Origin: an uncultured Desulfobacterales bacterium
Lineage (GTDB): Bacteria; Desulfobacterota; Desulfobacteria; Desulfobacterales; UBA11574
Direction of reading: 5' to 3'
Length of the DNA: 64,000 nucleotides
NCBI GenBank assembly: GCA_937998305.1
Contig: CALLDL010000148.1
Coordinates: forward strand, 8,839-72,838
The notes under the pieces are model-generated. The model was not told the origin of the DNA. It did no database searches and saw nothing but the letters and a program-made list of their open reading frames with translations. The translations under genes were made by a program, and so were the position numbers. How positions within the stretch are numbered: the first letter of the stretch is position 1; each line of letters starts with the position of its first letter. Shown here piece by piece: positions 23,054 through 53,442 of the stretch.

Positions 23054-23255
23054 ACATTTCCAGCTCATAAATAAGGCATTTATTCGATGAGCGAGTTGAG
23101 TCCCTTTATTTTTTTAAATCAGATACGAAATCCCGTTTGTTTAACGGGGACCGCACAAGAGTTTTCATCCGAGGCGTACTTATCGTACGTTGAGGATGGA
23201 AACTTGCGGAGAACGCTGCTCATCGGAAAAAGGGCTATTTATGCACTGGAAACTT
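23054..23255 (+). mobile_element. MITE-like element, family B, copy 1
   Basis: Ends acatttccagctcataaataagg / ctatttatgcactggaaact are inverted repeats related to the family A ends. An internal block of about 80 nt (gagttgagtccctttatttttttaaatcagatacgaaatcccgtttgtttaacgggg) recurs inverted at 34400-34490. Confidence 0.7.
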
Positions 23256-26200
23256 TACATGCTTCGTCGATACTTCCCCCCCACATCATACAACGCCCGG
23301 GTAATCTGGCCCAGGGTGCACACTTTAACGGCCTCCATCAGTTCTTCAAAAGTGTTTTCCCCTGACAACGCAACGCTCTGAAGACGTCGTAATGCATTAT
23401 CTGTTTCTTTTTTGTTTTGTTTCTTGAATGCCGCCAGACGTTTAAGTTGTGATTTCTTTTCACCTTCGGTGGCCCTGGATAACTCAATGTACTCGCTCAA
23501 TTGTTCCAAATCGGCATCAGGATCTCGAAAGGTATTGACACCGATGATGGGCAACTCGGCGGTATGCTTTAAATTTTCATAATACATCGATTCCTCTTGA
23601 ATCTTGCTTCTCTGATAACCGGTCTCCATGGCTCCCAGCACACCTCCACGTTCGGTGATCCTGTCGAATTCTGCAAGGACCGCTTTCTCCACCAACCGCG
23701 TCAACTCCTCGACAACGAAGCTGCCTTGATTCAAATTCTCATTTTTTGCAAGGCCCCATTCCCGGTTGATAATGAGCTGAATAGCCAAAGCACGTCGGAC
23801 CGATTCATTGCTCGGCGTCGTAATGGCTTCATCAAAGGCATTTGTGTGCAAACTGTTGCAGTTGTCATAAATCGCACAAAGTGCCTGAAGCGTTGTCCGA
23901 ATGTCGTTAAGCTGGATGTCCTGGCTGTGTAAGGAACGGCCGGATGTCTGTATATGATATTTCAGCATCTGAGACCGGGCGGACCCGCCGTATCTATTCT
24001 TCATGGCAATAGACCAAATACGTCTGGCCACTCTCCCGATGACCGTATATTCCGGATCCATGCCATTGGAAAAGAAAAAGGACAAATTGGGTGCAAAGCT
24101 GTCGATGGGCATCCCCCGGGATAGATAATATTCGACATAGGTAAATCCGTTGGCCAGTGTAAGGGCCAGTTGAGTAATCGGGTTGGCGCCGGCCTCGGCA
24201 ATGTGGTATCCTGAAATAGATACCGAATAGAAATTTCGCACGTTGTTTTCTATAAAGTACTTCTGGATGTCCCCCATCATTTTCAGCGCAAATTCAATGG
24301 AGAAAATACAGGTGTTTTGGCCTTGATCTTCTTTTAAAATATCCGCTTGAACCGTTCCGCGAACATCGGACAAGGCCCTGGATCGAATGTCATTGTATTC
24401 TCTCTTCGAAGGTTCTCTTTTTTCTCGGGCTCGAAACAGATCCACTTGTTGATCGACGGCAGTATTTAAAAACATGGCAAGTATGATAGGGGCAGGTCCG
24501 TTGATAGTCATGGAAACAGATGTGTTGGGTGCACACAGATTAAAACCGTCATAAAGCACTTTTATATCGTCGAGGGTACATATACTGACGCCGGAAGTGC
24601 CGACTTTGCCGTAGATATCCGGCCTTATGTCCGGATCGCAGCCGTATAATGTGACAGAATCAAATGCCGTGGACAGACGCTTGGCCTTGGCATCAGCAGA
24701 TAAAAGCTTGAATCGTCTATTGGTCCTTGCAGGGTCCCCTTCCCCTGCAAACATACGTGTGGGATCTTCGTCAACCCGTTTTAACGGAAAAACACCGGAG
24801 GTAAACGGATACCGACCGGGAATATTTTCTTCTCTCAACCAGGTGTAAATTTCTCCGGGGTCCTTGTACTTGGGAAGTACAATCTTCGGAATTCTCATAT
24901 GCGCCAATGACGTTGTGTAAAGTGGAACACGAATCTCCCGGTTCCGAACACGGTATGTAAGCTCGTCTTTCGTGTAAGTCTTTTGGATATCTTCCCAGTC
25001 ATCGAGTAGACGGGTCGTCTCGGAATACAGTGTGTTTTCACCTCTTTCAATTTCCATTTTGAGCCGATCTATAACCTGTGATGTATCGGCTATAAGACTA
25101 TCCCCGGATAGGGCCGTTGCGGTCTCCTTGAGGTGCCAGACCTTTCGGACTGCATCTGCCTGCTCTTGGGTTTCTCGATGATATTTCCTGATGGTGCCGG
25201 CGATTTCAGCAAGGTAACGGGTTCGCTCCGGAGGAATTATAATGGTTTTGGATGTCGATGTCTTTGTTTTAGGTCTGGAAAGACTCGAGTCCAATACGAT
25301 CTGTGTTCTTTCAGACAATGCATCGATAATCCCATGATACAAGGCCGTAACGCCATCGTCGTTAAATTTGGAAGCAATGGTTCCGTAAACAGGCATTTTC
25401 CCGGGAGATTTGTCCCATGCCTTCCGGTTGCGCTGCACCTGTTTGCGCACATCGCGCACCGCATCCTCGCCGCCTTGTTTCTCATATTTGTTCACGACAA
25501 TAAGGTGGGCAAAATCAAGCATGTCTATTTTTTCGAGCTGGGTGGCAGCCCCGAATTCACTGGTCATCACATAGATCGATAAATCAACAAGGTCGATGAT
25601 ACTCGAATCTCCCTGCCCGATTCCTGCTGTTTCCACAATAACAAGGTCAAAGCCCGCGGCTTTCGCAACGTCTATGGTTTCTGCCAGGGCATGGGGGATT
25701 TCTGTCTGTGATCCTCGGGTAGCAAGGCTCCGCATATAAACCTTTGGATTTTCGATGGCATTCATACGTATCCTGTCACCTAAAAGCGCACCGCCGGTTT
25801 TACGACGGGACGGATCGCTGCTGATGACCGCCAGATGAATATGTTCAAGATCATTTAGAATTCTTAAGATAATTTCATCTGTCAGAGACGATTTTCCGGC
25901 CCCACCGGTTCCGGTAATGCCGATAACCGGTATTTTTCGTTTCCCGATCTTTTTTTTAATTTGAGATCTGAGTAAAGCAAGATGGCCGTCTTCCTGTGCC
26001 TTGGCCTGCTCAACGGCGGTAATCAGATTGGCGACCATGGACATGTTGTCCGGTGACAGCGCTGAAAAGTCAAATTCGGTCTTGTTAACCGTAGAAAAAT
26101 CAATCTGTTTTATCATGTGATGGATCATACCCTGGAGCCCCATTTTGGCGCCGTCTTCAGGAGAATATATTTTAGTGACACCGTATGATTCCAGCTCTTT

Positions 26201-26533
26201 TATCTCTTCAGGTATGATAACCCCGCCGCCGCCTCCAAAAATCTTGATATGCGGAACATTTCTTTCTTTCAAAAGGTCGACGATGTATTTAAAGAATTCC
26301 ATATGACCGCCCTGATAACTTGACACCGCAACCGCTTGAACATCTTCCTGGATTGCAGCATCGACGATTTCATGAACAGAGCGGTTATGTCCCAAGTGAA
26401 TGACCTCAACACCGGCATCCTGGAGTATGCGACGCATGATGTTTATGGATACATCATGACCATCAAAAAGGGATGTTGCGGTGACGACTCTGATGGGGTG
26501 TTTGGGATTGTAAGCTTCAACGTCCATCGTCAT
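23255..26533 (-). CDS. icmF: fused isobutyryl-CoA mutase IcmF (B12-binding domain, MeaB-type GTPase, mutase catalytic domain)
   Basis: About 1090 aa. N-terminal B12 domain ([19 protein letters not shown]). G-domain motifs [30 protein letters not shown] and ETAGIGQGD. The mutase domain has RMFAGEG (Phe) and DQGQNTCIF (Gln), where from memory methylmalonyl-CoA mutase has Tyr and Arg. RBS AAGGAGG precedes ATG 26533/26527. The track start at 26548 is a TTG inside the RBS. Confidence 0.88.
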
Positions 26534-26618
26534 GCATCCTCCTTGCAAAATTTAAGATTTTCGATTGAAGATTGACTATTAAAGGTATCTTCCAATTTTA
26601 TTGATAACCGGTTTGGGT

Positions 26619-43501: not shown

Positions 43502-44101
43502 CTAAATAGAAGACAGGACCGCCTCAAGCTGCTCCAAGTATCCGCCGTAAAAATGATCCGCACCGTCGATAATTTCAAAGCGGGCATTAGGATTCCATGT
43601 AGAAATCATTTTTTCTATCACATCTGCAGGTGCAATATCATCCCTGTTTCCGGTGACCACAAATTTAAGGGTATTCATCGTAACAATTCTTTTAAAATCC
43701 ATAAATCCCACCGGCGGGGAGACCATGATCATCTGTTTTGTCAAGGTATCTTTCTGTAAGGCATGTGCGTTCACCCAGGCGCCGAATGAATACCCTGCCA
43801 AATCTATCCGGTCCATTCCCATATCCGCAAGAAATGAAAGGGCAGACAAAACGTCTTTTTGTTCACCGAAACCGTTGTCATGGGTCCCCTGGCTTCTTCC
43901 GACTCCTCTGAAATTGAACTTTAACGTTGAATATCCTTTCATATGGTAAACATGAACAATGGATTCCACCACCAGATTATTCATGTCTCCCCCATAAAGC
44001 GGATGGGGATGGGTAACCACAACGCCTTTCTTTTCACCCCTTTGATTGAGCAACCCTTCTATTTCATATTCATCTGACAAAAACGTTATTTTTTCGGCCA
44101 T
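43502..44101 (-). CDS. alpha/beta hydrolase (small, dienelactone-hydrolase-like)
   Basis: 199 aa. Nucleophile elbow LAGYSFGAW and HPHPLYGGDMNN. Confidence 0.75.
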   Translation of the reverse strand: MAEKITFLSDEYEIEGLLNQRGEKKGVVVTHPHPLYGGDMNNLVVESIVHVYHMKGYSTLKFNFRGVGRSQGTHDNGFGEQKDVLSALSFLADMGMDRIDLAGYSFGAWVNAHALQKDTLTKQMIMVSPPVGFMDFKRIVTMNTLKFVVTGNRDDIAPADVIEKMISTWNPNARFEIIDGADHFYGGYLEQLEAVLSSI

Positions 44102-44159
44102 TGTGTGTCCTTAATTCAATCCTTTAACTCAGCCATTAACCGCAGATCCCCAAATGGAG

Positions 44160-44243
44160 GTACGTCTTCAAAGGGTGTGATTCCTCGTGTAACGATATTG
44201 GCGGAATGGCTTCGTCATTTCAATGTATACAAGACATTGAAAT
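44160..44243. repeat. family D element, copy 3 (left end plus collapsed inner stem)
   Basis: gtacgtcttcaaagggtgtgattcctcgtgtaacgatattggcggaatggcttcgtcatttcaatg-tatacaaga-cattgaaat. The core is replaced by a short loop. Confidence 0.6.
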
Positions 44244-44270
44244 CGACTGGAGCGAATCTTAAATTTATAG

Positions 44271-44349
44271 TAATAGTTTAGTCCTTTGAAACAAATCGAT
44301 TTCAAAGAAGCTTCAGGTATGATTAAATTTTCAAAAGGCTAAAATGTTT
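44271..44349. repeat. mini palindromic repeat, family C, copy 2
   Basis: taatagtttagtcctttgaaacaaatcgatttcaaagaagcttcaggta...aaaaggctaaaatgttt. Lies 27 nt from the D3 copy. Confidence 0.7.
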
Positions 44350-44383
44350 CAGGCCGGCCAAAAATGATTTTAGCAACCGCCCG

Positions 44384-47140
44384 TTAAGGACCTGTCGTTG
44401 ATCCGGTATCTGATATCAATTCATGATATAGCTTTTCTGTTTCCTCGCTTAGCGGACAATCTAACTCTTTTTCTATATGGTCTTTACACTTTTCAAATGT
44501 TCTTTTTACCATGGCTTTGTTGCCGGTTTGTGAATAGTATGTCATCAGTAATTGATAAATATCCTCGGTGTATTTATCCATCGATAGATATTTTTTTACA
44601 TAACCGATACATTTCTTATAACTTTTTTTCACATGATAGTATTTAATGATTTCCTCCAGCAATTGAAGGTGCTGGTCCTTAAACCTTTCCCTTTCTTCAT
44701 CACACCATTGAACATAAAGATCCTCTTCGAGAAAGTCGCCCCGATAAATCGCTTCGGCCTTCAAAAGATGATCGATTGATTCTTCCGAATCTTTACTTTT
44801 TTTGGCAAGTTTCAATTCTTTTTTGAAATTATCAATATCCACATATCCTTCATCTCCAATATCGATATGATACGAACTTCCGGAGCGTAAGATATATGCA
44901 GAAGGAGTCCCTCTGGTTATCTCAGGCTCCAGTGTCTTTCTCATCGATGCAAGAGCGACATGAAAGCGTTTTGCGGTTTTAACCGGGTCATCTTCCGGCC
45001 ATAAAAGTTCCATCAAAACATCTTTTTTCAAATAACCTTTTTGCCTGTGGTAGAGAAGATATTTGAAAATCATTTGGGCTTTCCTGCTTTTCCATTTTTT
45101 ATCATAAATTTCCTGGTCTCCCTGAAACACCCTAAATTTTCCAAACAAATAAACCTTCAAGGACGGTGTTTGTAATTTCAGAATTGCATTTTGACAATCA
45201 ACAGGAGCATCATTGATCTTATGATGGTTGGGATTTGGCAATAATTTAAGAGACCCCACTGTTTTCGGTTCGCTTTTGTTTAAGCGATGCCAGATTTTTG
45301 AAAACGATTCTGCATCTATGTAATCCGAAATAGCTTCCTTATCTTCATCAAAATTTTCAAGCAGTCCAGCCGCTTGTTTATAGAGTTCTATAACAGTTTT
45401 ACAACCCAGTTCGGTTATGAGCTTTGTCTGAAGAAAATCCCGGAAAAGCTGGTGATAGGTATACCATCTATCAGCGTCATCAAAAGAGTTGGTAAACAGA
45501 TGATTCTCTTCGAGATCTTTTAATATGTCCCGTGAATTATGTATATTCAGTAGTTGATCGCAAAATTCAGCGTTCATCCGGGGCAAAATAGACGTTTTGA
45601 TCAAAAATTCTTTTTTCCCGTCAGTCAGCAAATTATAGACATTTTCTTCCAAATAGCTAAATACAAGCTTCTGTGAACCTTTCAGTGTTAACAGAAGTTT
45701 CTCGATCTCGACAGGTCCTTTCCCTTTTAATACATGATAAAAAAGAATTAAACCCGACACCCATCCTTCTGTTTTTTGGCGAAGAATTTCAAGGCTTTCT
45801 TGTTTTAAAAATATATAGAACAGTTGAGAGTAAAGCCGATTAATTTCATCAGTTGTAAAAGAAAGATCCCCTTCTCTTATGTCAACCGTTTGCCTTGCAG
45901 CTCTTAATCGAGACAGCGGCAGATTAACGTCAAACCGACTAATGAGAATCAAATGAACTTCGGGCGGAAAGTGTGTGATTAAAAAGTCCAGGGATAATTT
46001 TATCTCACGGCTGTATTGTATGTTATGATAATCGTCAAGGACAATAATCAGGTCTTTTTTTGCGATGGTTTCCAACTCCTTTAAAAAAACGGTTAGAACC
46101 GCTTCCCGGCTTTGTTTCAAGTTCTGTTTTTTGACCAGCCACCGGCATGTCTCGGCTCCGAATTTAGGAAAATATTTTTGGATGCCGGCGGTCAGATAAC
46201 TCAAAAAAATGATAAAATCCCCGTCCGATGGTTCCAGACGGTACCAAACAGTATTCAAGTTCAAATAGTTGTGGGCCTGAGCGATAAACGTCGTCTTACC
46301 ATATCCTGCTCCCGCGATGACGGTGGTAAGTCTTTTTTGAGGGATCTCGGCAAACAAGGGATGTAGTCTTTCTCTGGTAACGGTATCAGCTGCTTGAGGG
46401 GCAAGAAGTTTTGAACTCAATATATTGAGGCGACGATATTTACCAATTTTCAGCAGGTTAGGCTTTAGCTCAAAAAGAAACAAAAACACTGCACCATTGA
46501 GGATAAGCAGGCCCATTGCGCCAATAGTGGTTATCGGTCGCGCTTTTCCCAAATTTCTTGGAGACTTGGGGTCCAGGCTCGTAACCTTTAGATTGTCCGC
46601 AAAAGCCTCGGTCTTTCTTCCGATTGCCAGGTAAGATTTGGCCCTCGTTCTATAAGCGTCGGACATGGTTCCAGGATCAGCCCAAATCTCGATAGCTTTG
46701 GTGGAATCACGTATGGCGTCATTATATCTGTCGATCAACCGATACGCTTCGGCACGATCGGCGTATGCATCGGCACAATTCGGTTTCAACTTGATGGCGT
46801 GGGTAAAATTGTCGATGGCCTGATAGTAGATACGGCTTCTTAAAAAGCCCAGTCCCAACATCCGAAAATCTTCGGCTTTTGCCGGCGCAAGTTCAATATA
46901 TCTTTCAAAATCCTGGATGACTGCGTCGTATCTTTCCTGAAAATAATAAAGCAATCCTCGCTTTTCATAGGCTTCGACCAACGCTGGATTCAGCTTCAAG
47001 GCTTCGGTGAAGTACTCTATTTTCTTTGAGGTCATGGTGCTTGAAAGACCAAGATTATAATACTTCATGGCCTCCATATCTTGGGCCTGAGCAGCCACCA
47101 GACCAATGAACATCAAAAAGAAAAACGTCATTTTTTTCAT
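44384..47140 (-). CDS. membrane-anchored TPR / STAND P-loop NTPase / SARP (wHTH + BTAD) transcriptional regulator
   Basis: 918 aa. Signal peptide MKKMTFFFLMFIGLVAAQAQ, about 180 aa of TPRs, TM helix ITTIGAMGLLILNGAVFLFLF and P-loop TTVIAGAGYGKTT. The C-terminus has a winged helix (LKVYLFGKFRVFQGDQEI...ELLWPEDD...FHVALASMRKTLEP) followed by a BTAD-like helical domain. Confidence 0.8.
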   Translation of the reverse strand: MKKMTFFFLMFIGLVAAQAQDMEAMKYYNLGLSSTMTSKKIEYFTEALKLNPALVEAYEKRGLLYYFQERYDAVIQDFERYIELAPAKAEDFRMLGLGFLRSRIYYQAIDNFTHAIKLKPNCADAYADRAEAYRLIDRYNDAIRDSTKAIEIWADPGTMSDAYRTRAKSYLAIGRKTEAFADNLKVTSLDPKSPRNLGKARPITTIGAMGLLILNGAVFLFLFELKPNLLKIGKYRRLNILSSKLLAPQAADTVTRERLHPLFAEIPQKRLTTVIAGAGYGKTTFIAQAHNYLNLNTVWYRLEPSDGDFIIFLSYLTAGIQKYFPKFGAETCRWLVKKQNLKQSREAVLTVFLKELETIAKKDLIIVLDDYHNIQYSREIKLSLDFLITHFPPEVHLILISRFDVNLPLSRLRAARQTVDIREGDLSFTTDEINRLYSQLFYIFLKQESLEILRQKTEGWVSGLILFYHVLKGKGPVEIEKLLLTLKGSQKLVFSYLEENVYNLLTDGKKEFLIKTSILPRMNAEFCDQLLNIHNSRDILKDLEENHLFTNSFDDADRWYTYHQLFRDFLQTKLITELGCKTVIELYKQAAGLLENFDEDKEAISDYIDAESFSKIWHRLNKSEPKTVGSLKLLPNPNHHKINDAPVDCQNAILKLQTPSLKVYLFGKFRVFQGDQEIYDKKWKSRKAQMIFKYLLYHRQKGYLKKDVLMELLWPEDDPVKTAKRFHVALASMRKTLEPEITRGTPSAYILRSGSSYHIDIGDEGYVDIDNFKKELKLAKKSKDSEESIDHLLKAEAIYRGDFLEEDLYVQWCDEERERFKDQHLQLLEEIIKYYHVKKSYKKCIGYVKKYLSMDKYTEDIYQLLMTYYSQTGNKAMVKRTFEKCKDHIEKELDCPLSEETEKLYHELISDTGSTTGP

Positions 47141-47308
47141 AGCACAACCTCTTTTTGGTGAAGCGATCCATTATAGCTATACTTTAAGATGTAATTACCT
47201 TTATTTATTATCTCAAAAGATAACCGAGGTCAATATATAGTATCTCAAGTTTCGCACCCGAATAAAACTAAAAAGTAATTGAAGTTGCAAGCCAAAATAA
47301 CCTTGGGA

Positions 47309-48025
47309 TTATTCATCTTTTTCCGGCGGTTTGAGCTTCAGTTTGAAAATCAGTCCCGCTGCAATACCGATGAGATATATAAGACCCATTTTTCTTGTAT
47401 ATCCCGGATTGTTAAAACTCCCGCTATCTTTTCTCCATATTTGCCAGACTCTGGGATCCAATCTCCATGCATTTCCTAGATCTTCATAAGCCTTATCAGC
47501 CTGACCGAGCTTCCAGTAGATTTTATACCTATTTCGGTAAGCCTCGGACATGGTCAGCTGATCTCCCCCGATACGAATGGCTATAGTGACATCGCGTATG
47601 GCCTGGTCGAGATTACCAATATGTCGATAAGCCTCCGCTCTTTTTGAATAAGCGCCGGCAAATTCCGGCTCCAGTTCGATAGCGCGGGTGAAGCTGGAAA
47701 CAGCCTCCCTGTATAGACCGGTTTTAAGGTAGCCAATTCCCAGCATTTTGAGAGCTGAGGCCTTGGTGGGAAAGAACTCGATGAAACGCTGAAAATCCTT
47801 GATCATCAACTCATACTTTTCTTGGAAATAATAGAGCATCCCCCGTTTTTCATAGGCTTCTGCCAAGGATGGATTTAGCTCAAGAGCCCGGCTAAAGTAA
47901 TTGATCTTTTTGTAAGTCATTCTGTTTTCTATACCAAGGTTGAAGTACGCCATTGCGTCCATGGCATAAGCTCTGGCCATTATCGGCCATAGGAGTATAA
48001 AAACACAGATCGCCATTTTTCTCAT
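47309..48025 (-). CDS. secreted/membrane-anchored TPR protein, paralogue of the sensor module of the STAND-SARP regulator
   Basis: 238 aa: signal peptide, TPRs and a C-terminal TM helix (GLIYLIGIAAGLIF). It aligns gap-free with residues about 20-190 of the 918-aa protein. Roughly half the positions are identical in my hand alignment. Confidence 0.8.
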   Translation of the reverse strand: MRKMAICVFILLWPIMARAYAMDAMAYFNLGIENRMTYKKINYFSRALELNPSLAEAYEKRGMLYYFQEKYELMIKDFQRFIEFFPTKASALKMLGIGYLKTGLYREAVSSFTRAIELEPEFAGAYSKRAEAYRHIGNLDQAIRDVTIAIRIGGDQLTMSEAYRNRYKIYWKLGQADKAYEDLGNAWRLDPRVWQIWRKDSGSFNNPGYTRKMGLIYLIGIAAGLIFKLKLKPPEKDE

Positions 48026-48106: not shown

Positions 48107-49636
48107 TTAAAAAGGAAAACCCTTGTTGGACTTCTCTGCCGGCTGCACAGTTGAAGCAGACGGCACATATTTTTGTGCTTTTGAATGAACAATTTTCGAT
48201 GTTACTGTAATCGCCTTTGGCTTGGTAGGGCAAGCGTGCTCGCAGGCACCGCAGCCGATGCAATAATCAAGGTCGATTTCCGGGAATAAGACAAGCCCCT
48301 TTTCCACCGGAAAAATTGCATGGGTAGGACAGGCTTCGCCGCAGGCGCCGCAATGCTTTTTTTTAACATACACGATACATTTCGCCTTATTCAATGATAC
48401 GGTGCCGATTTGGGTCAGTTTCTTTTCTTGTAACAAAAGAGGGGCTATGGCACCGGTGGGGCAGACCTGGCCGCATGCGTTGCAATCAAAATCGCAATGA
48501 CCTTGCAGATAATTGAGCTTGGGCCGCATTATGCCGCAAACACCATATTCTAAATAGGCCGGTACCATTACATTGGTCGTGCAGACGCTCACACAGAGAT
48601 GACAAGCCGTGCAGTGTTGCATAAAATGTGCAGTGCTATTTGATCCTGGTGGTATAATCGGTATCTGTCTGCGTTGCATAGCTTCAAGGGGTGATAAGCG
48701 GATAGGAAACAACGCTGCCAAAAACGTCCCACTAACCGCCGCCGTACTAACCAGAAAGCTTCTTTTAGAAGGTACCCACCGACCCCAAGAGAGGATCGCA
48801 AGTTGTGTCTGATAGTTCAGAGCCGTCTTTTGGCAGGCATCTATGCAATTAAAGCAGGCCACGCAACGACTGGGGTCGATCTCCAACCTATCTATATCGA
48901 TACACCCCGCCTTGCAAACACCTTCACACGATCGGCACGATCGGCATTTTTTTTTGTCGATGACAAATCGAAAAAGAGAAAAGCGGGACACTATGCCCAA
49001 AAGTGCCCCCACCGGGCAGATCGTATTGCAATATGCGCGCCCGGAAATGATTGAAAATGCCAGGACGATGCCAAACGATCCAATGGATACTGTCAGAATG
49101 GAAAAGGGGATATAGTGCTGCTTTCTGACCATCAGGGCATAAATATCGAATTGTTCAAACACATTGACCATCATGTTATTGATCCAAAGAACAAGCGATT
49201 TGAATGGATGGGCTGCGATTCTCCCAAAAAGGCTGTAAGGGTCGAGCAGGTTGACCAAAACAAACGATCCGAGAATAGCGGTGACAACTGTCAGGACCAG
49301 CAAACAATACGGGACCAGGCGATACGATCGTTGAAAAGCGTGCCTTTTTCGAGAGCCTCTGAAAATCCTGATAAAAATATCCTGAAGGATTCCCAAGGGA
49401 CAGAGAAAGGAACAGTAAAACCGACCAAAGATAAAGCTTGCCAGAAGGAGAAGTAAGAAACCAAGACCGAGCAAATGACCCCGGCTGTGTATAAACTGCA
49501 ATAAGGACGGTGTGAATTGAAAATACAGCAACGTGTTGGACAGTGTTGTCGATATCTTTTCATCTCCCTGAAATGCCAGCACAAACAGTATGAACACAGT
49601 GGTAGAGATCGTAATACGAAGCTTTTTGAGATTCAA
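48107..49636 (-). CDS. NapH/NosR-like integral membrane polyferredoxin (multiple 4Fe-4S)
   Basis: 509 aa. TM helices with GRFYCSFLCPLG and RAYCNTICPVG motifs, plus several CxxCxxCxxxC(P) clusters (CRSCRSCEGVC, CVACFNCIDAC, CTACHLCVSVC, CNACGQVCP, CGACGEACP, CIGCGACEHACP). Confidence 0.8.
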   Translation of the reverse strand: MNLKKLRITISTTVFILFVLAFQGDEKISTTLSNTLLYFQFTPSLLQFIHSRGHLLGLGFLLLLLASFIFGRFYCSFLCPLGILQDIFIRIFRGSRKRHAFQRSYRLVPYCLLVLTVVTAILGSFVLVNLLDPYSLFGRIAAHPFKSLVLWINNMMVNVFEQFDIYALMVRKQHYIPFSILTVSIGSFGIVLAFSIISGRAYCNTICPVGALLGIVSRFSLFRFVIDKKKCRSCRSCEGVCKAGCIDIDRLEIDPSRCVACFNCIDACQKTALNYQTQLAILSWGRWVPSKRSFLVSTAAVSGTFLAALFPIRLSPLEAMQRRQIPIIPPGSNSTAHFMQHCTACHLCVSVCTTNVMVPAYLEYGVCGIMRPKLNYLQGHCDFDCNACGQVCPTGAIAPLLLQEKKLTQIGTVSLNKAKCIVYVKKKHCGACGEACPTHAIFPVEKGLVLFPEIDLDYCIGCGACEHACPTKPKAITVTSKIVHSKAQKYVPSASTVQPAEKSNKGFPF

Positions 49637-49641
49637 TGCAT

Positions 49642-50607
49642 CTACCCGCCTATAACATGTCTTCGGATATTCAACTCATTAAGATTCATATTGCCGATAT
49701 TTAGATCGTGTCCCAGTTGGATGTATCGGACTTTTTCCGGTTCCATGCCGTACACCTTAGAGGCCGCAGCATCCACCGCCACAATGTCGTTGGATACCAG
49801 CAATGTTTTCTTAAGGGCCACATTTTCCGGAGTGCTTCCCCGGGGACCGAAGCGCTGCATGACCCGATAGGCATCCACGATGTTCAGGTCGGGCTTTTTG
49901 AACAGGCAGAAATCGGCAATGGATTGTTCCAGATCTAAAGAATGATACTTCATTCGATCCCAGACAACGCCCATCAGGTTTTTCATGGCAATACTCTGAT
50001 AGGTGTAGTGATGGTTTTTCAGTATGGGAACATTGATGAATACATCGGCTTCCAGAACCAATTCATGTACCTCGGTAGAGACCAGCGCCTTGGCACCGGG
50101 TATGGTCACCTTCTGGTAGTATTTTTCATTATCACCCGGTGCCACCAGCGCACCCGCAGATTTGGCAGCTTCTCCAATGCCGCTCTCTTTATAGCATTTT
50201 TGTGCCATGCCGTATGAGCTCGAGGCCACGTTATCGAAAACATAGACCTTTTTTGCGCCTGCCCCAAAGCAATGCGCTACGATGGATTTGACCAGCAGCG
50301 GATTGGTCGTGGCGCCGATTTCAGGTTTCCTGGCAAAGCTGATATTGGGTTTGACAAGCACGGTTTGTCCTTTTTTCACGAACTTTTTCATGCCGCCCAT
50401 CATAAAGATGGCCTGATTGAACATGGCATCGGGCTCACCGTTTTTAACAGCCACAAGGTCCGGTGTCCCGGAGGACGCAGCCTTGGCAAATAGTATCTCT
50501 GGCGTGCCCCAGAGAAATGAGCCACCCACGGCAACCCCGGTGGCCAGGCTTTTTTTCAGAAATTCACGCCTTTCTTTGCTGTTTAGTTTATTCATAATAA
50601 CCGGCAC
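49642..50607 (-). CDS. DUF362 domain protein with twin-arginine signal peptide
   Basis: 321 aa. Tat motif SKERREFLKKSLATGVAVGG and DUF362 core QTVLVKPNISFARKPEIGATTNPLLV. Confidence 0.75.
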   Translation of the reverse strand: MPVIMNKLNSKERREFLKKSLATGVAVGGSFLWGTPEILFAKAASSGTPDLVAVKNGEPDAMFNQAIFMMGGMKKFVKKGQTVLVKPNISFARKPEIGATTNPLLVKSIVAHCFGAGAKKVYVFDNVASSSYGMAQKCYKESGIGEAAKSAGALVAPGDNEKYYQKVTIPGAKALVSTEVHELVLEADVFINVPILKNHHYTYQSIAMKNLMGVVWDRMKYHSLDLEQSIADFCLFKKPDLNIVDAYRVMQRFGPRGSTPENVALKKTLLVSNDIVAVDAAASKVYGMEPEKVRYIQLGHDLNIGNMNLNELNIRRHVIGG

Positions 50608-51064
50608 AAAGGATCGCTTTCTCTCCAGGTATCTTAAGGAAGTAGGTAATTTTTAATTTGGGTACGTCAGCTCCGGAAGGCCGATAGTAGTACTGTACCC
50701 ATCCCTTCTTTTTGGTTTTAATCTCTTCAAGAACCTTAGTAAAAGGCTGCTTGCCATCGGCATCTTTATAATTTTTCATGGGAAAACCGATAAATCTGGG
50801 GATAGGATGCGCCAGCAACTTGCCCATATCATCATCCATGCAAAAAACATAAGAGTCCTTCCATTTATATGGGCCGTTCGTATCCTTGAATTTTTCAAGA
50901 GCGGGCTGTATTCCTATTTTCTTAACCAATTTTGCGGCTTCCTCGACTTTTGCCACACATTCCTCTTTGGTGGCCCCCTCTTGCGCAAAACACGGGTTTA
51001 CAAAAGAAAAGACCGCGAGTATCGACAGCATCGAACCCAGAACTTTAATGAACTTTTTCATCAT
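50588..51064 (-). CDS. secreted single-Cache (sCache_2-like) domain protein with no output domain
   Basis: ATG 51064/51061 follows GGGAGGA. Signal peptide MMKKFIKVLGSMLSILAVFSFVNPCFAQ. Cache-like pattern YVFCMDDDMGKLLAHP...GWVQYYYRPSG...KITYFLKIPGEKAILCAGYY. The track start at 51139 is rejected. Confidence 0.65.
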   Translation of the reverse strand: MMKKFIKVLGSMLSILAVFSFVNPCFAQEGATKEECVAKVEEAAKLVKKIGIQPALEKFKDTNGPYKWKDSYVFCMDDDMGKLLAHPIPRFIGFPMKNYKDADGKQPFTKVLEEIKTKKKGWVQYYYRPSGADVPKLKITYFLKIPGEKAILCAGYYE

Positions 51065-51136
51065 ATCCTCCCTATTTTGTTTACGATCAATTGAAGTTTC
51101 ATATTTGATAACATTTGATACCTTTATATAGCCGTT

Positions 51137-51165
51137 CAACTAACTCAGAACTAAATTTGAACTAA
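51137..51165 (-). promoter_or_regulatory. heptamer direct-repeat array a (3 x TTAGTTC/G at 11-bp phasing), candidate SARP-type activator site
   Basis: The gene strand reads TTAGTTC aaat TTAGTTC tgag TTAGTTG, then aacggc, then TATATA (51130-51125). Lies about 70 nt upstream of the sCache gene start. Confidence 0.6.
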
Positions 51166-51438
51166 TTACTGGTGTATAAGGTTTATTTCTTTGATGTTGA
51201 ACAAGGAGATTAGTAGACAACTTTTGAATGTGTTGCGTTTCTCAGACGATGCCTACAACGTCCCTTTTTACAAATTCTTGCAGCATTTCTAAAAAAGTTG
51301 AAGCTGCCTCTTGTAAGACTTTTAACAAGTCTGGACAAAATGCGACAACAAACAAAAAAAGGAACAATATCACCGTAAAAACAAATTTAACTTTAAAAAA
51401 GAAGTTGTCTTTATGAAAAATCCGTATCATGGGTCAGC

Positions 51439-52083
51439 TTATCCAAAAGTATAAGATTTTGTAAAAAAACCAAATACAGGGCTAAAGATCGGCACCAAAA
51501 AATAATTGACAATTCCGATCTGACTTGATCGCTCTAAAAACAACAGTGTCGCCAAAAGATAAGGACTCACCTGGAAAAATGTCTTTTTAAACCTTTTATA
51601 ACGCTCAGGAATAATAGTCGCCGGTATCTTCCCAAGAGCCAGCGGCGGAAATGGTAAGAGATTCGACACGGCCATCATGAGATTAACACCGAGAACGATT
51701 TTGAACATCCTTGAATCAATGGAAAATTGTTCAACAATCAAACAGAAGCTTGATACGATACTGGCAAGAATAAAATTTGCCGCAGGCCCTGAACATTGAA
51801 CGATAACGCTATAGAGCCTTGGGTGTTTGAATTTACTCGTATCGACATCGACATTCCGCGGCCAGCCGAACCCCGCAATAAAAAAGGCGATGGTACCCAG
51901 AATATCAAGATGTCGAAAGGCATTAAAATGAAAGCGGGTCTTATCTGAAGAACGCACATCACCCAAAATTTGAGCCACAAAAGCCTGGGCTTCGGCATTG
52001 ATGGTAACTGAGAAGAGAATCCCCAGGCAAAAGGCAACCAGATAGTCGAGAGTAACATTTTGTAGATCAAGTATGTATGGCAT
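51439..52083 (-). CDS. site-2 protease (M50, COG1994-type) homologue lacking all three zinc ligands (predicted pseudoprotease)
   Basis: 214 aa membrane protein with family landmarks GFGWPRNVDVD, SGPAANFILA and NLLPFPPLALG. HExxH is replaced by AEAQA (nt 51982-51996). The Asp of the PLDG motif is replaced by Ala (PLALG). Confidence 0.7.
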   Translation of the reverse strand: MPYILDLQNVTLDYLVAFCLGILFSVTINAEAQAFVAQILGDVRSSDKTRFHFNAFRHLDILGTIAFFIAGFGWPRNVDVDTSKFKHPRLYSVIVQCSGPAANFILASIVSSFCLIVEQFSIDSRMFKIVLGVNLMMAVSNLLPFPPLALGKIPATIIPERYKRFKKTFFQVSPYLLATLLFLERSSQIGIVNYFLVPIFSPVFGFFTKSYTFG

Positions 52084-52164
52084 TTTTTTGAGAGAGGCGG
52101 AAAGGTGCTTTGCCTTTCCGCCTCTGGCAAATCGAGTTTATTTCAACGTTTTTCATGAAACATT

Positions 52165-53442
52165 CTACTTGACACGGGCATATGCAGGTCTTTTCGTAAT
52201 AAACGCCAGTACAATGGCCACCATAAGGAGTGCTGCCGACAAATAAAAGGCCATGTTGAAACTCCCGGTTGCGTCCCTGATCGTACCGGCAAGTCTTGGC
52301 ATGAACGCTCCAAATCCCCATCCCAGAAACACCAGTCCGTAATTGAACCCCAGGTTCTTGGGACCGTAAAAATCTGCCGTATAAGACGGCATCAACGCCA
52401 ATCCGCCGCCATACTGCCAATAACCGACTCCGGCCAGCAAGAAGAGTAAAAATACACTCTTAGTCGAAATGGCATAGGGAATCAGAAGCATGGCCAAAGC
52501 GGACACACCGCAATTCAGCATATAGGCTTTGTCCCTGCCGAGGATGTCCGAGTATTTGCCAGTACCCACTCGACCGGCTGCATTGACCAGACCGCCGTAG
52601 GAGGCAAGTATCCAGCCGGCCACCAGACCGGTCGCAGCCTTATTCAACAAGCCAGCTGCATTGGTGATGATAAGAATGCCGGACTGGGTACTGAGGATAA
52701 ACATGGCAACCAAGGCATAAAACTGCCAGGTCTTGGTCATCTCACCGGCAGTCCAGTCATTTTGCGTTGCGACCGGTGCCCCAGATTTATCTTGCTCCGA
52801 TTTTACCGGCGCTGGTTCGGGAACATACCCTTCAGGAGGCCAGGCAAGGACCTGGGCGGCAGCACAGATCACGATAAGATACGCAATGCCCAGAACATAG
52901 AAACTGGCCGAAAGGCCCCAGCCGTCAATAATCCATTTTGCCAACGGCGAGACATAAAGTGCCGCACCGCCGTATCCTGCCACAACCAAACCGGCAACCA
53001 GTCCCCGTTTATGGGGGCCAAACCATTTCAAAGCTGCCGGAGTTGGGGCTGCATAGCCGATTCCCATACCAATGCCGCCCCCGATCCCATAACCGATTAT
53101 CAGACCGGTATAACTTTTCATCATGCCGGCTATGATCAGTCCGAGCCCGATGGCGATACCCCCGATACTGGCCGCAATGGTCGGCCCATATTTGTCTTGT
53201 ATCTTCCCGCCGGGAATCATTAACAAGGCAAAAACTAACATACAAAGCGTTACCGGGGAGGATGCCTGGGCGTGTTTTAGTACTTCCCATCCCTGATTAA
53301 TCGGAAGTTCAATGAATTTAGGATCAACAATTCTGACTTTCCATACGCTCCAGGCATATAAGACACCCAGGCATAAATTGATGGTCGTTCCTGCAAATAC
53401 AACTCGCCACGCCTTTGCCGGCGTTTTGCTTACTGTATTCAT
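52165..53442 (-). CDS. MFS transporter, oxalate/formate antiporter (OFA)-like
   Basis: 425 aa with 12 predicted TM helices. N-terminal WRVVFAGTTINLCLGVLYAWSVW is typical of the OFA family. RBS TAGGAGGT. Confidence 0.85.
   Translation of the reverse strand: MNTVSKTPAKAWRVVFAGTTINLCLGVLYAWSVWKVRIVDPKFIELPINQGWEVLKHAQASSPVTLCMLVFALLMIPGGKIQDKYGPTIAASIGGIAIGLGLIIAGMMKSYTGLIIGYGIGGGIGMGIGYAAPTPAALKWFGPHKRGLVAGLVVAGYGGAALYVSPLAKWIIDGWGLSASFYVLGIAYLIVICAAAQVLAWPPEGYVPEPAPVKSEQDKSGAPVATQNDWTAGEMTKTWQFYALVAMFILSTQSGILIITNAAGLLNKAATGLVAGWILASYGGLVNAAGRVGTGKYSDILGRDKAYMLNCGVSALAMLLIPYAISTKSVFLLFLLAGVGYWQYGGGLALMPSYTADFYGPKNLGFNYGLVFLGWGFGAFMPRLAGTIRDATGSFNMAFYLSAALLMVAIVLAFITKRPAYARVK

Follow-up and report, generated by a model that had tools for sequence, protein, structure and literature searches.

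A predicted membrane-tethered MalT-NOD/SARP regulator and its free-standing TPR paralogue in uncultured Desulfobacterales

MalT of Escherichia coli is a soluble regulator that senses maltotriose through a C-terminal superhelical domain and ends in a LuxR-type helix-turn-helix (HTH); through MalK, its regulation is tied to the membrane and to a transporter. AfsR of Streptomyces is cytoplasmic, is phosphorylated by AfsK, and joins a SARP DNA-binding module, a nucleotide-binding oligomerization domain (NOD) as well as tetratricopeptide repeats (TPRs), in that order. ToxR, CadC and TcpP combine an OmpR-type winged helix, one transmembrane (TM) helix and a periplasmic sensor in a single polypeptide, and accessory membrane or periplasmic partners (ToxS, LysP, TcpH) modulate receptors of this type. 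Here we describe a regulator that resembles each of these proteins in part. It is encoded in a 64,000-nucleotide stretch of DNA from an uncultured Desulfobacterales bacterium (GCA_937998305.1, contig CALLDL010000148.1), hereafter the window. The list of open reading frames (ORFs) places the regulator gene at 44384..47140 (918 residues, whole ORF including the stop codon) and a shorter gene for a TPR protein at 47309..48025 (238 residues), both on the minus strand.

A preliminary description, made by reading the window without database searches, had proposed that the regulator consists of a signal peptide, TPRs, a TM helix, an NTPase and a SARP module, in that order. Our Pfam and NCBIfam searches, hydropathy profiles, homologue alignments, AlphaFold2 (AF2) models and Foldseek comparisons bear this out. 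The first 19 residues (MKKMTFFFLMFIGLVAAQA; 47084..47140, minus strand, as for all parts of this gene) combine a basic n-region with a hydrophobic core of 13 residues, carry an A-x-A site followed by QD, and are predicted to form a Sec signal peptide that is cleaved before QD. Ala19 is unchanged across 14 aligned long and short homologues. The TPR domain (residues ~20-192, 46565..47083) matches Pfam TPR_1 (49.5 bits, cut-off 27.8), TPR_2 (38.3 bits) and TPR_17 over residues ~25-190, and AF2 models it as four helix pairs with a capping helix (helices 37-189, pLDDT 80-97). A single TM helix follows (residues ~203-223, 46472..46534), with a Kyte-Doolittle peak of 2.14, conservation among homologues, an AF2 helix at 209-222, and a basic, K/R-rich juxtamembrane segment, ELKPNLLKIGKYRR, directly after it. 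The window encodes BamA-like, TamB, YhdP and TolC-like proteins, so the host must be a diderm and have a periplasm. The topology that had been proposed for the regulator is also what hydropathy, the A-x-A site and conservation predict, with the TPR domain outside, one TM helix, and the NOD and SARP modules inside.

The cytoplasmic part is predicted to begin with a MalT-type STAND NOD (residues ~241-596, 45353..46420) made up of a nucleotide-binding domain (NBD), a helical domain (HD) and a winged-helix domain (WHD). Residues 241-614 align with MalT 3-371 in the NCBIfam MalT model (E 4.6e-64), and the NOD matches MalT chain 8bob_C in the Protein Data Bank (PDB; E 5e-31). Aligned to this chain, the NTPase motifs are intact: Walker A (VIAGAGYGKTT from residue 274; residues 277-284, 46289-46312), Walker B (DDYH), LISR, GW and YHxLF. 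GAGYGKTT and IIVLDDYH in the regulator line up with PAGYGKTT and LVIDDYH in MalT, and LISR, GW and YHQLF line up with VLSR, GW and YHPLF, which keeps the sensor-1 arginine and the WHD histidine. A protein identical to the regulator (P0001) carries a precomputed match to WHD_MalT (PF25873), and AF2 models residues 257-596 with a pLDDT of ~85-90. The regulator therefore shares with E. coli MalT (PDB 8bob) the NBD-HD-WHD layout, Walker A and B, the sensor arginine, GW and YHxLF. Unlike MalT, it is predicted to be anchored in the membrane, and it has neither the TPR_MalT superhelical domain (PF17874) nor the LuxR HTH. Against the MalT equivalog model NF003420 it scores 216.9 bits (cut-off 537), with the match confined to MalT 3-371. 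By these alignments, the regulator has a MalT-like NOD but is no MalT orthologue.

A disordered linker (residues ~597-656, 45173..45352; AF2 pLDDT <50) joins the NOD to the SARP module. This linker keeps just the first helices of a MalT-type sensor arm; the remainder, ~400 residues in soluble relatives, is gone. The SARP module (44411..45172) comprises an OmpR-type winged helix (residues ~657-766) and a BTAD domain (residues ~767-910). Pfam BTAD (PF03704) matches residues 767-908 at 63.5 bits (cut-off 22.1), spanning profile positions 1-145 of 146. The preliminary description had named both BTAD and Trans_reg_C for this region; the former is clearly there, and Pfam Trans_reg_C gave no match to the winged helix at E ≤ 0.1. 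A single-sequence phmmer search of the C-terminus against the PDB found AfsR only marginally (E 0.8). A profile built from 24 homologous C-termini covers the whole AfsR SARP region (8hvr_I; profile positions 7-257, AfsR 43-283, E 2.6e-5), with a weaker match to EmbR. The AF2 model of the last 288 residues (pLDDT 90.2) has AfsR 8k60_J as its top fold match in the PDB (Foldseek E 7.6e-10, TM-score 0.72). Further fold matches are AfsR 8hvr and EmbR 2ff4 and 2fez (EmbR TM-score 0.52), with ~255 aligned columns and E-values from 7.6e-10 to 1.6e-8. We accept the OmpR-type winged helix despite the missing Trans_reg_C match because both the profile and the modelled fold match AfsR and EmbR. The full-length AF2 model (mean pLDDT 78.5) shows well-folded TPR (25-190), NOD (257-596) and SARP (657-910) regions, joined by the TM helix (209-222) and the disordered linker (597-656).

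Like AfsR and the Mycobacterium protein EmbR, the regulator possesses a winged-helix HTH (wHTH) and BTAD module, and like AfsR it combines SARP, NOD and TPR parts. The order in AfsR is SARP-NOD-TPR, whereas in the regulator it is TPR-TM-NOD-SARP with the TPRs predicted outside the cytoplasm. The regulator reaches only 21.4 bits against the AfsR equivalog model (cut-off 1430). It has a genuine SARP module, not the AfsR architecture. Like ToxR, CadC and TcpP, the regulator is predicted to unite an OmpR-type winged helix, one TM helix and a periplasmic sensor within a single chain; its membrane insertion and topology are predictions from hydropathy and conservation. Those proteins differ from it in their N-terminal DNA-binding domain and type II topology, and in lacking a signal peptide, an NTPase, a BTAD domain and a TPR sensor. 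By analogy, the regulator would work like a ToxR-type receptor but with the reverse topology and an added NOD, and it is not a member of that family.

A homologue search covering 5.8 billion proteins identified 38 close relatives of the regulator with the same layout (49-100% identity, 880-940 residues). A signal peptide is present in every close relative with a complete N-terminus, and a TM helix at ~200-225 in all 38; both features are absent from the soluble relatives that form the next tier. These soluble proteins (~1,060-1,140 residues), which NCBI names "BTAD domain-containing putative transcriptional regulator", start their NOD at residues 1-25, carry an internal TPR_MalT (PF17874) arm, and end in a wHTH-BTAD module. 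To our knowledge, and as far as we have searched, the soluble family is uncharacterised. Its members are 45-55% identical to the regulator in the NOD and SARP parts, place the NOD before the SARP module, and share the NOD start ILxSKL...GAGYGKTT. Unlike the regulator, they have no signal peptide, N-terminal TPR domain or TM helix, and they keep the internal ~400-residue PF17874 arm. For example, soluble P0040 aligns to regulator residues 238-659 and 631-912, with ~400 extra residues (412-813) that have no counterpart. We also scanned 1.84 billion cluster representatives (clusters at 50% identity) exhaustively with HMMER, using the NOD and SARP part as query. The soluble architecture occupies nearly all of the best 150 clusters; the membrane-anchored form is represented there by one full-length protein (P0002) and one shortened variant (P0034, 610 residues), and a few other proteins of ~600-690 residues are also present.

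Judged from these homologues, a NOD followed by a C-terminal SARP module is the normal order in this lineage. The preliminary description had singled out the inverted domain order. The order does differ from that of AfsR, but AfsR is the wrong baseline: the inversion is not the novelty, because a C-terminal SARP module is standard in the soluble ~1,100-residue family. By the same comparison, what is distinctive in the regulator is the gain of an N-terminal signal peptide-TPR-TM module and the loss of the ~400-residue cytoplasmic sensor arm. This predicted extracytoplasmic TPR-TM module and the missing MalT-type arm are its new parts. A neighbour-joining distance tree of the NOD and SARP parts recovered each of two membrane-anchored clades firmly (196/200 and 200/200 bootstraps) but gave no support to their joint monophyly (6/200); a distance tree of the TPR cores likewise does not discriminate between one fusion event and two. 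The 3' two-thirds of the regulator gene, which encode the WHD, linker and SARP parts (window ~44000-46000), have a G+C content of 0.36-0.40, lower than the ~0.45 of its 5' part and the 0.42-0.47 of the flanks, and this could be a trace of composite origin.

The database label of the long proteins is merely "SARP family transcriptional activator". In the open-access literature we found no description of a transmembrane or membrane-anchored STAND, SARP or BTAD regulator, or of a short TPR-TM family. The earlier remark that this pairing of genes was not recognised as a described system agrees with our literature searches, which gave no such regulator.

Natural variants of the regulator lack parts of the NOD. 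Approximately ten homologues of ~700 residues are missing regulator residues ~267-476, which comprise the P-loop NBD and most of the HD, and are otherwise 65-87% identical; others, of ~600 residues, lack residues ~267-586, the whole NOD. The variants (L002 5533-7635, encoding P0011; P0014, P0016, P0017, P0020-23, P0031 and P0032-34) are deleted in frame, and the 700-residue P0011 sits at the syntenic position in L002, adjoining a short gene. The deletion junction lies between two AEI/VEI codon triplets (window codons ~264-266 and ~477-479) that belong to a direct repeat of 7-10 nt in the DNA, reading CGAGATC in the window and TGCCGAGATC in L001. Upstream of the junction, members of the P0011 group have a signature in common, whereas P0031 resembles full-length P0015, which suggests at least two independent deletions. 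That open frames have been kept at 65-87% identity suggests that the reduced proteins still work. These variants suggest that the NOD is a modulatory layer and that TPR-TM-SARP may be the minimal working unit.

The short gene next to the regulator encodes a signal peptide (residues 1-19), a TPR domain (~20-200; Pfam TPR_1 65 bits, TPR_2 59.6 bits), a TM helix (~213-229) and a nine-residue tail, KLKPPEKDE. BLASTP aligns it with the long protein at 46% identity over 239 residues (E 9e-62). In an ungapped alignment of the first 190 residues, 94/190 positions are identical (49.5%), in agreement with the earlier hand alignment that had put the identity at about half of roughly 170 positions. This similarity is far beyond chance. 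Within the window, tblastn searches with the TPR, NOD and SARP parts found no paralogues beyond these two genes.

To place this protein in a wider family, we scanned one genome per species with an alignment of the N-terminal module, which returned 80 loci, nearly all from metagenome-assembled genomes (MAGs) of Desulfobacterales, Syntrophobacterales and other Desulfobacterota. In 77/80 loci the module forms a free-standing ORF of ~235-280 residues (the usual size being ~235-250), and the flanks fetched for these loci contain no homologue of the NOD or SARP part; several genomes (e.g. CP070768.1 and CAXMTB01) hold three or four copies. A search with the short protein gave 150 matches; the 120 listed are 145-305 residues long and are named only "tetratricopeptide repeat protein", and no other fusion partner occurs among those 120. 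Signal peptide-like cores are present in 97/104 members with complete N-termini, a C-terminal TM helix in 119/120, and a conserved mixed-charge tail after this helix, typically KLKPPEKD(E/D), in 109/120. The juxtamembrane LKxKP motif of this family is retained at the fusion point in the long proteins. We considered a C-terminal sorting signal of the PEP-CTERM, LPXTG or GlyGly-CTERM type and rejected it: the curated NCBIfam models gave no family or sorting-domain match in seven members (the window protein to E 0.1, six others to E 1). One short gene lies on a 4-kb contig labelled Candidatus Bathyarchaeota archaeon (L009, JAOZHM010000045.1); it is a typical bacterial TPR-TM member and probably a binning contaminant.

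The preliminary description had interpreted the short gene as a duplicated copy of the regulator's sensor that might act as a co-sensor, decoy or anti-activator, and on the duplication our results disagree. The free-standing family is common, the short window protein has its own orthologue group (238 residues, 70-94% identity), and in a distance tree of TPR cores the regulator's core shares up to 60% identity with unlinked short proteins (L006, L009), compared with ~50% with its neighbour. For these reasons we conclude from the alignments that the adjacent gene does not duplicate the regulator's sensor. The short family is the widespread form, and the regulator appears to have captured one of its members. 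The same data speak against an alternative in which a tandem duplication of the regulator left the short gene behind as a decaying pseudogene, cut down to the 5' end. Adjacency, a shared strand and 46% identity ending at the TM helix would fit such a remnant. It is nevertheless already contradicted, and we consider it extremely unlikely: the short form makes up a large family of its own, in which length, a separate stop codon and the KLKPPEKD(E/D) tail are conserved, has 238-residue orthologues at 70-94% identity, and resembles the regulator's TPR domain less than unlinked members do.

ExoR, a small secreted Sel1/TPR-like repeat protein, inhibits the ExoS kinase by direct contact and offers a possible analogy for the short paralogue. 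The short protein differs in being paralogous to the receptor's sensor and in its predicted membrane anchor; ExoR is a soluble protein without sequence relationship to it and acts on a histidine kinase.

Physical linkage between the two genes extends well beyond the window. In 11/12 regulator loci, one or more short genes lie no further than ~5 kb from the regulator, in at least seven gene arrangements and with regulators down to 49% identity, which upholds the co-occurrence of long and short genes expected in the preliminary description. L003 and L008 are counted here as one locus, as inferred from a 99%-identical overlapping gene. The short gene lies directly upstream of the regulator in the window, L001, L002 and L005, and 100 nt upstream in L007 (regulator 49% identical). 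The order is short-MFS-regulator in L086 (P0009, 66% identical to the window protein), and in L003 and L008 (P0029, 51%) the regulator is followed by two short genes. L084 (P0027) and the P0030 locus have regulator-CBAH-short-short-...-MFS-M50-like, L085 (P0036) has short genes on both sides plus an sCache gene, and the P0037 locus has CBAH-short-short-ceramidase-TetR-regulator. With a handful of copies per 3-4-Mb genome, chance adjacency would be a few percent. The short-long linkage is real.

Free-standing members have no universal partner gene: neighbour clustering over 83 loci found only sub-family-specific ones, for example an ABC ATPase, a P-type ATPase and a nucleoside-recognition membrane protein. 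In ~8 genomes (L037, L044, L052, L054, L070, L073, L076 and L081), members of one sub-family are immediately upstream of a gene for a heavy-metal P-type ATPase that carries HMA domains, and other sub-families adjoin MacB/LolD-type ABC genes; the short family thus has several distinct contexts.

Upstream of the regulator and short genes, on the same strand, is a conserved block (48107..53442, minus strand) that we annotated with Pfam and NCBIfam. It encodes a membrane polyferredoxin of NapH-like type that has two CxxxCP motifs and, at the C-terminus, 4Fe-4S domains (48107-49636), a DUF362 protein with a twin-arginine (TAT) signal (RREFLKKS...; 49642-50607), a secreted, stand-alone sCache_2 protein that bears a signal peptide but lacks a transmitter domain (50588-51139), a 214-residue site-2-protease-like membrane protein of the Peptidase_M50 type (51439-52083), and an MFS monocarboxylate transporter (52165-53442). 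Families of this block recur beside distant regulators (L003 and L008, L084, L085, L086, L004), and the MFS, M50-like, sCache, DUF362 and Fer4 neighbourhood accompanies regulators with no more than 49-53% identity. Most constant among the neighbours is the MFS gene (window, L004, L086-88, L008, L084 and the P0030 locus). Its product scores 370.5 bits with the NCBIfam model for the L-lactate transporter SfMCT, above the cut-off of 320, and keeps 83% identity in L008 and L084 although the regulators there have only 51-53%. The M50-like gene always adjoins the MFS gene and is conserved in the window, L008, L084 and the P0030 locus. In 3/3 sequences checked (window; L008, 4026-4670; L084, 10159-10803), AEAQA replaces the catalytic HExxH, and from its sequence the protein looks like a conserved pseudo-protease. 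The sCache_2 gene recurs near regulators in L001, L002, L005, L008 and L085, in three arrangements, and its product is a candidate periplasmic ligand-binding partner. The DUF362 and NapH-like pair recurs in diverged form (30-35% identity) in L008, and its make-up suggests a periplasm-facing redox module. Elsewhere in the window, 23255-26548 (minus strand) encodes a 1,097-residue fused B12-binding/MeaB GTPase/methylmalonyl-CoA mutase protein (IcmF-like), which has nothing to do with the regulator system described here, although its length is similar to that of the soluble regulators.

SARP-family proteins bind direct heptamer-type repeats that overlap the -35 element and activate transcription. 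A repeat search of the 168-nt spacer upstream of the regulator gene identified two 15-nt direct repeats, TTGAGATAnTAnATA (coding strand), at 47202-47216 and 47234-47248 (minus strand), 32 nt apart, which we consider a candidate promoter or operator. The repeats are conserved in L001 and L005 and not in L002, where the NBD-deleted locus has an unrelated 324-nt spacer at that place. The motif TTGAGATA of these repeats occurs six times in the window against 2.7 expected; it is not significant alone, because 4/100 shuffles reach the same count. No SARP-type direct repeats were found upstream of the sCache or MFS genes in the window, and a sigma-70 promoter scan was uninformative, giving fewer matches than shuffled sequence.

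Taken together, we hold with moderate confidence that the regulator is a bitopic (type I) membrane-tethered one-component activator, derived from the soluble MalT-NOD/SARP family, with a periplasmic input. We infer that a small, secreted, C-terminally anchored TPR protein was fused to the N-terminus of a soluble MalT-NOD/SARP regulator, and that the regulator's own cytoplasmic TPR_MalT arm was lost after the fusion. Through this gain and this loss, signal input would have shifted from the cytoplasm to the periplasm. TPRs are generally protein-protein interaction modules. The periplasmic TPR domain may bind a protein or peptide, with the neighbouring TPR-TM paralogue or paralogues, the secreted sCache_2 protein, or both as candidates, and partner binding may alter receptor self-association in the membrane. 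The short paralogue would then act as a partner, either co-receptor or inhibitor, through TPR-TPR or TM contacts and not as a spare copy of the sensor. The change could be relayed via the single TM helix to the NOD, which, by analogy with MalT and AfsR, might serve as an ATP-dependent gate for oligomerisation or for release of the SARP module. In AfsR, the SARP domain binds direct repeats as a side-by-side dimer and is inhibited by the NOD and TPR parts until ATP binds (PMC10936776). ToxR and CadC are reported to activate transcription while integrated in the membrane (PMC10629549, PMC5430869). By analogy with these two proteins, the SARP module of the regulator would bind direct repeats at target promoters while tethered. 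The likely targets would be the linked MFS monocarboxylate-transporter/DUF362/NapH-like cluster and possibly the regulator's own promoter.

Several points weigh against this explanation. It raises the question of how one TM helix could drive a STAND/NOD switch, and the NBD has been lost repeatedly, which shows that some lineages, at least, do not require ATP switching. The topology is a prediction from hydropathy, the A-x-A site and conservation, and the ligand, DNA site and target genes of the regulator are candidates. The adjacent short gene is not the nearest relative of the regulator's TPR domain, so no specific pairing is evident from sequence, and in L004 there is no short gene in the 4.1 kb available upstream. 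The 32-nt separation of the lone two-copy TTGAGATAnTAnATA repeat differs from the 11- or 22-nt spacing that is typical of SARP boxes, and its significance is weak.

A more far-reaching form of this explanation is possible, though we regard it as doubtful. The regulator would be the first transmembrane STAND (NLR-like) receptor, in which the TPR domain, outside the cytoplasm, detects a protein or ligand complex in the periplasm and controls the NOD and SARP modules through one TM helix, with dedicated TPR-TM paralogues as co-receptors or inhibitors. The known forms would line up as a series from soluble NOD-arm-SARP through TPR-TM-NOD-SARP and TPR-TM-WHD-SARP to TPR-TM-SARP. If this is true, the variant series would document the stepwise conversion of a cytosolic STAND regulator into a ToxR-like receptor of reversed topology.

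The conserved upstream block lends itself to another reading, an unlikely one in our judgement, in which the TPR domain is a scaffold and not a sensor. It would dock the regulator in a TPR-TM hetero-oligomer, and the signal would come from the sCache_2 protein (a carboxylate) or from the MFS protein as a trigger transporter, as LysP acts for CadC and MalK for MalT. The general role of TPRs in protein-protein contacts fits this idea, as do the recurrence of sCache_2 in three arrangements and the MFS gene, which is the most consistently linked neighbour, passes the SfMCT L-lactate transporter cut-off, and stays 83% identical in L008 and L084 despite regulators at 51-53%. Any such interaction is hypothetical. 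This reading also overlaps the membrane-tethered activator that we favour, in which sCache_2 is already a candidate partner, and differs from it mainly in which component binds the chemical signal.

The M50-like protein of the same block bears on an alternative that we consider improbable, in which the TPR-TM part serves mainly as a membrane anchor that holds the activator off DNA, and regulated intramembrane or juxtamembrane proteolysis frees the NOD-SARP part. A site-2-protease-like Peptidase_M50 protein is conserved nearby in the window, L008, L084 and the P0030 locus, and AF2 predicts disorder in both the juxtamembrane region (residues 194-237) and the linker (residues 597-656). With AEAQA in place of HExxH, however, the M50-like protein probably has no protease activity. 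The regulator has no linked candidate for a site-1 protease, and ToxR and CadC, which are tethered wHTH activators, need no release.

The predicted topology could also be wrong, with the hydrophobic segments not inserted and the protein a soluble regulator with an N-terminal TPR sensor. In favour of this, the topology is deduced from sequence features, and basic residues (KSPRNLGKARP) lie on the periplasmic side of the TM helix. We consider it very unlikely, as both hydrophobic segments and the A-x-A site are conserved over ~150 long and short homologues while their surroundings diverge, and the second segment has at least 20 apolar residues with a Kyte-Doolittle value above 2. Many bacterial STAND proteins are defence proteins (PMC13581612), and a STAND NTPase with a repeat-type sensor could suggest an anti-phage (Avs/NLR-like) role, but this is barely credible for a protein that has no PADLOC match, a SARP DNA-binding module as effector instead of a nuclease, TIR domain or pore, a metabolic and transport-related neighbourhood conserved across distant genomes, and a sensor whose predicted place is outside the cytoplasm, away from the site at which phage proteins are made.

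The hosts of these genes are lineages of uncultured MAGs, which limits the reach of the finding. The natural NBD-less and NOD-less variants are a ready structure-function series. STAND/NLR switches and SARP activators are usually treated as cytoplasmic sensors, and ToxR/CadC-type activators are all oriented the other way round and lack an NTPase. A type I receptor with a signal peptide, linking a TPR domain outside to a NOD and SARP module inside, would add a new wiring to bacterial one-component signalling. For the sulfate-reducing and syntrophic Desulfobacterota, it would provide a functional lead for a large, multi-copy and uncharacterised family of anchored periplasmic TPR proteins, here tied to a conserved transporter/redox cluster.

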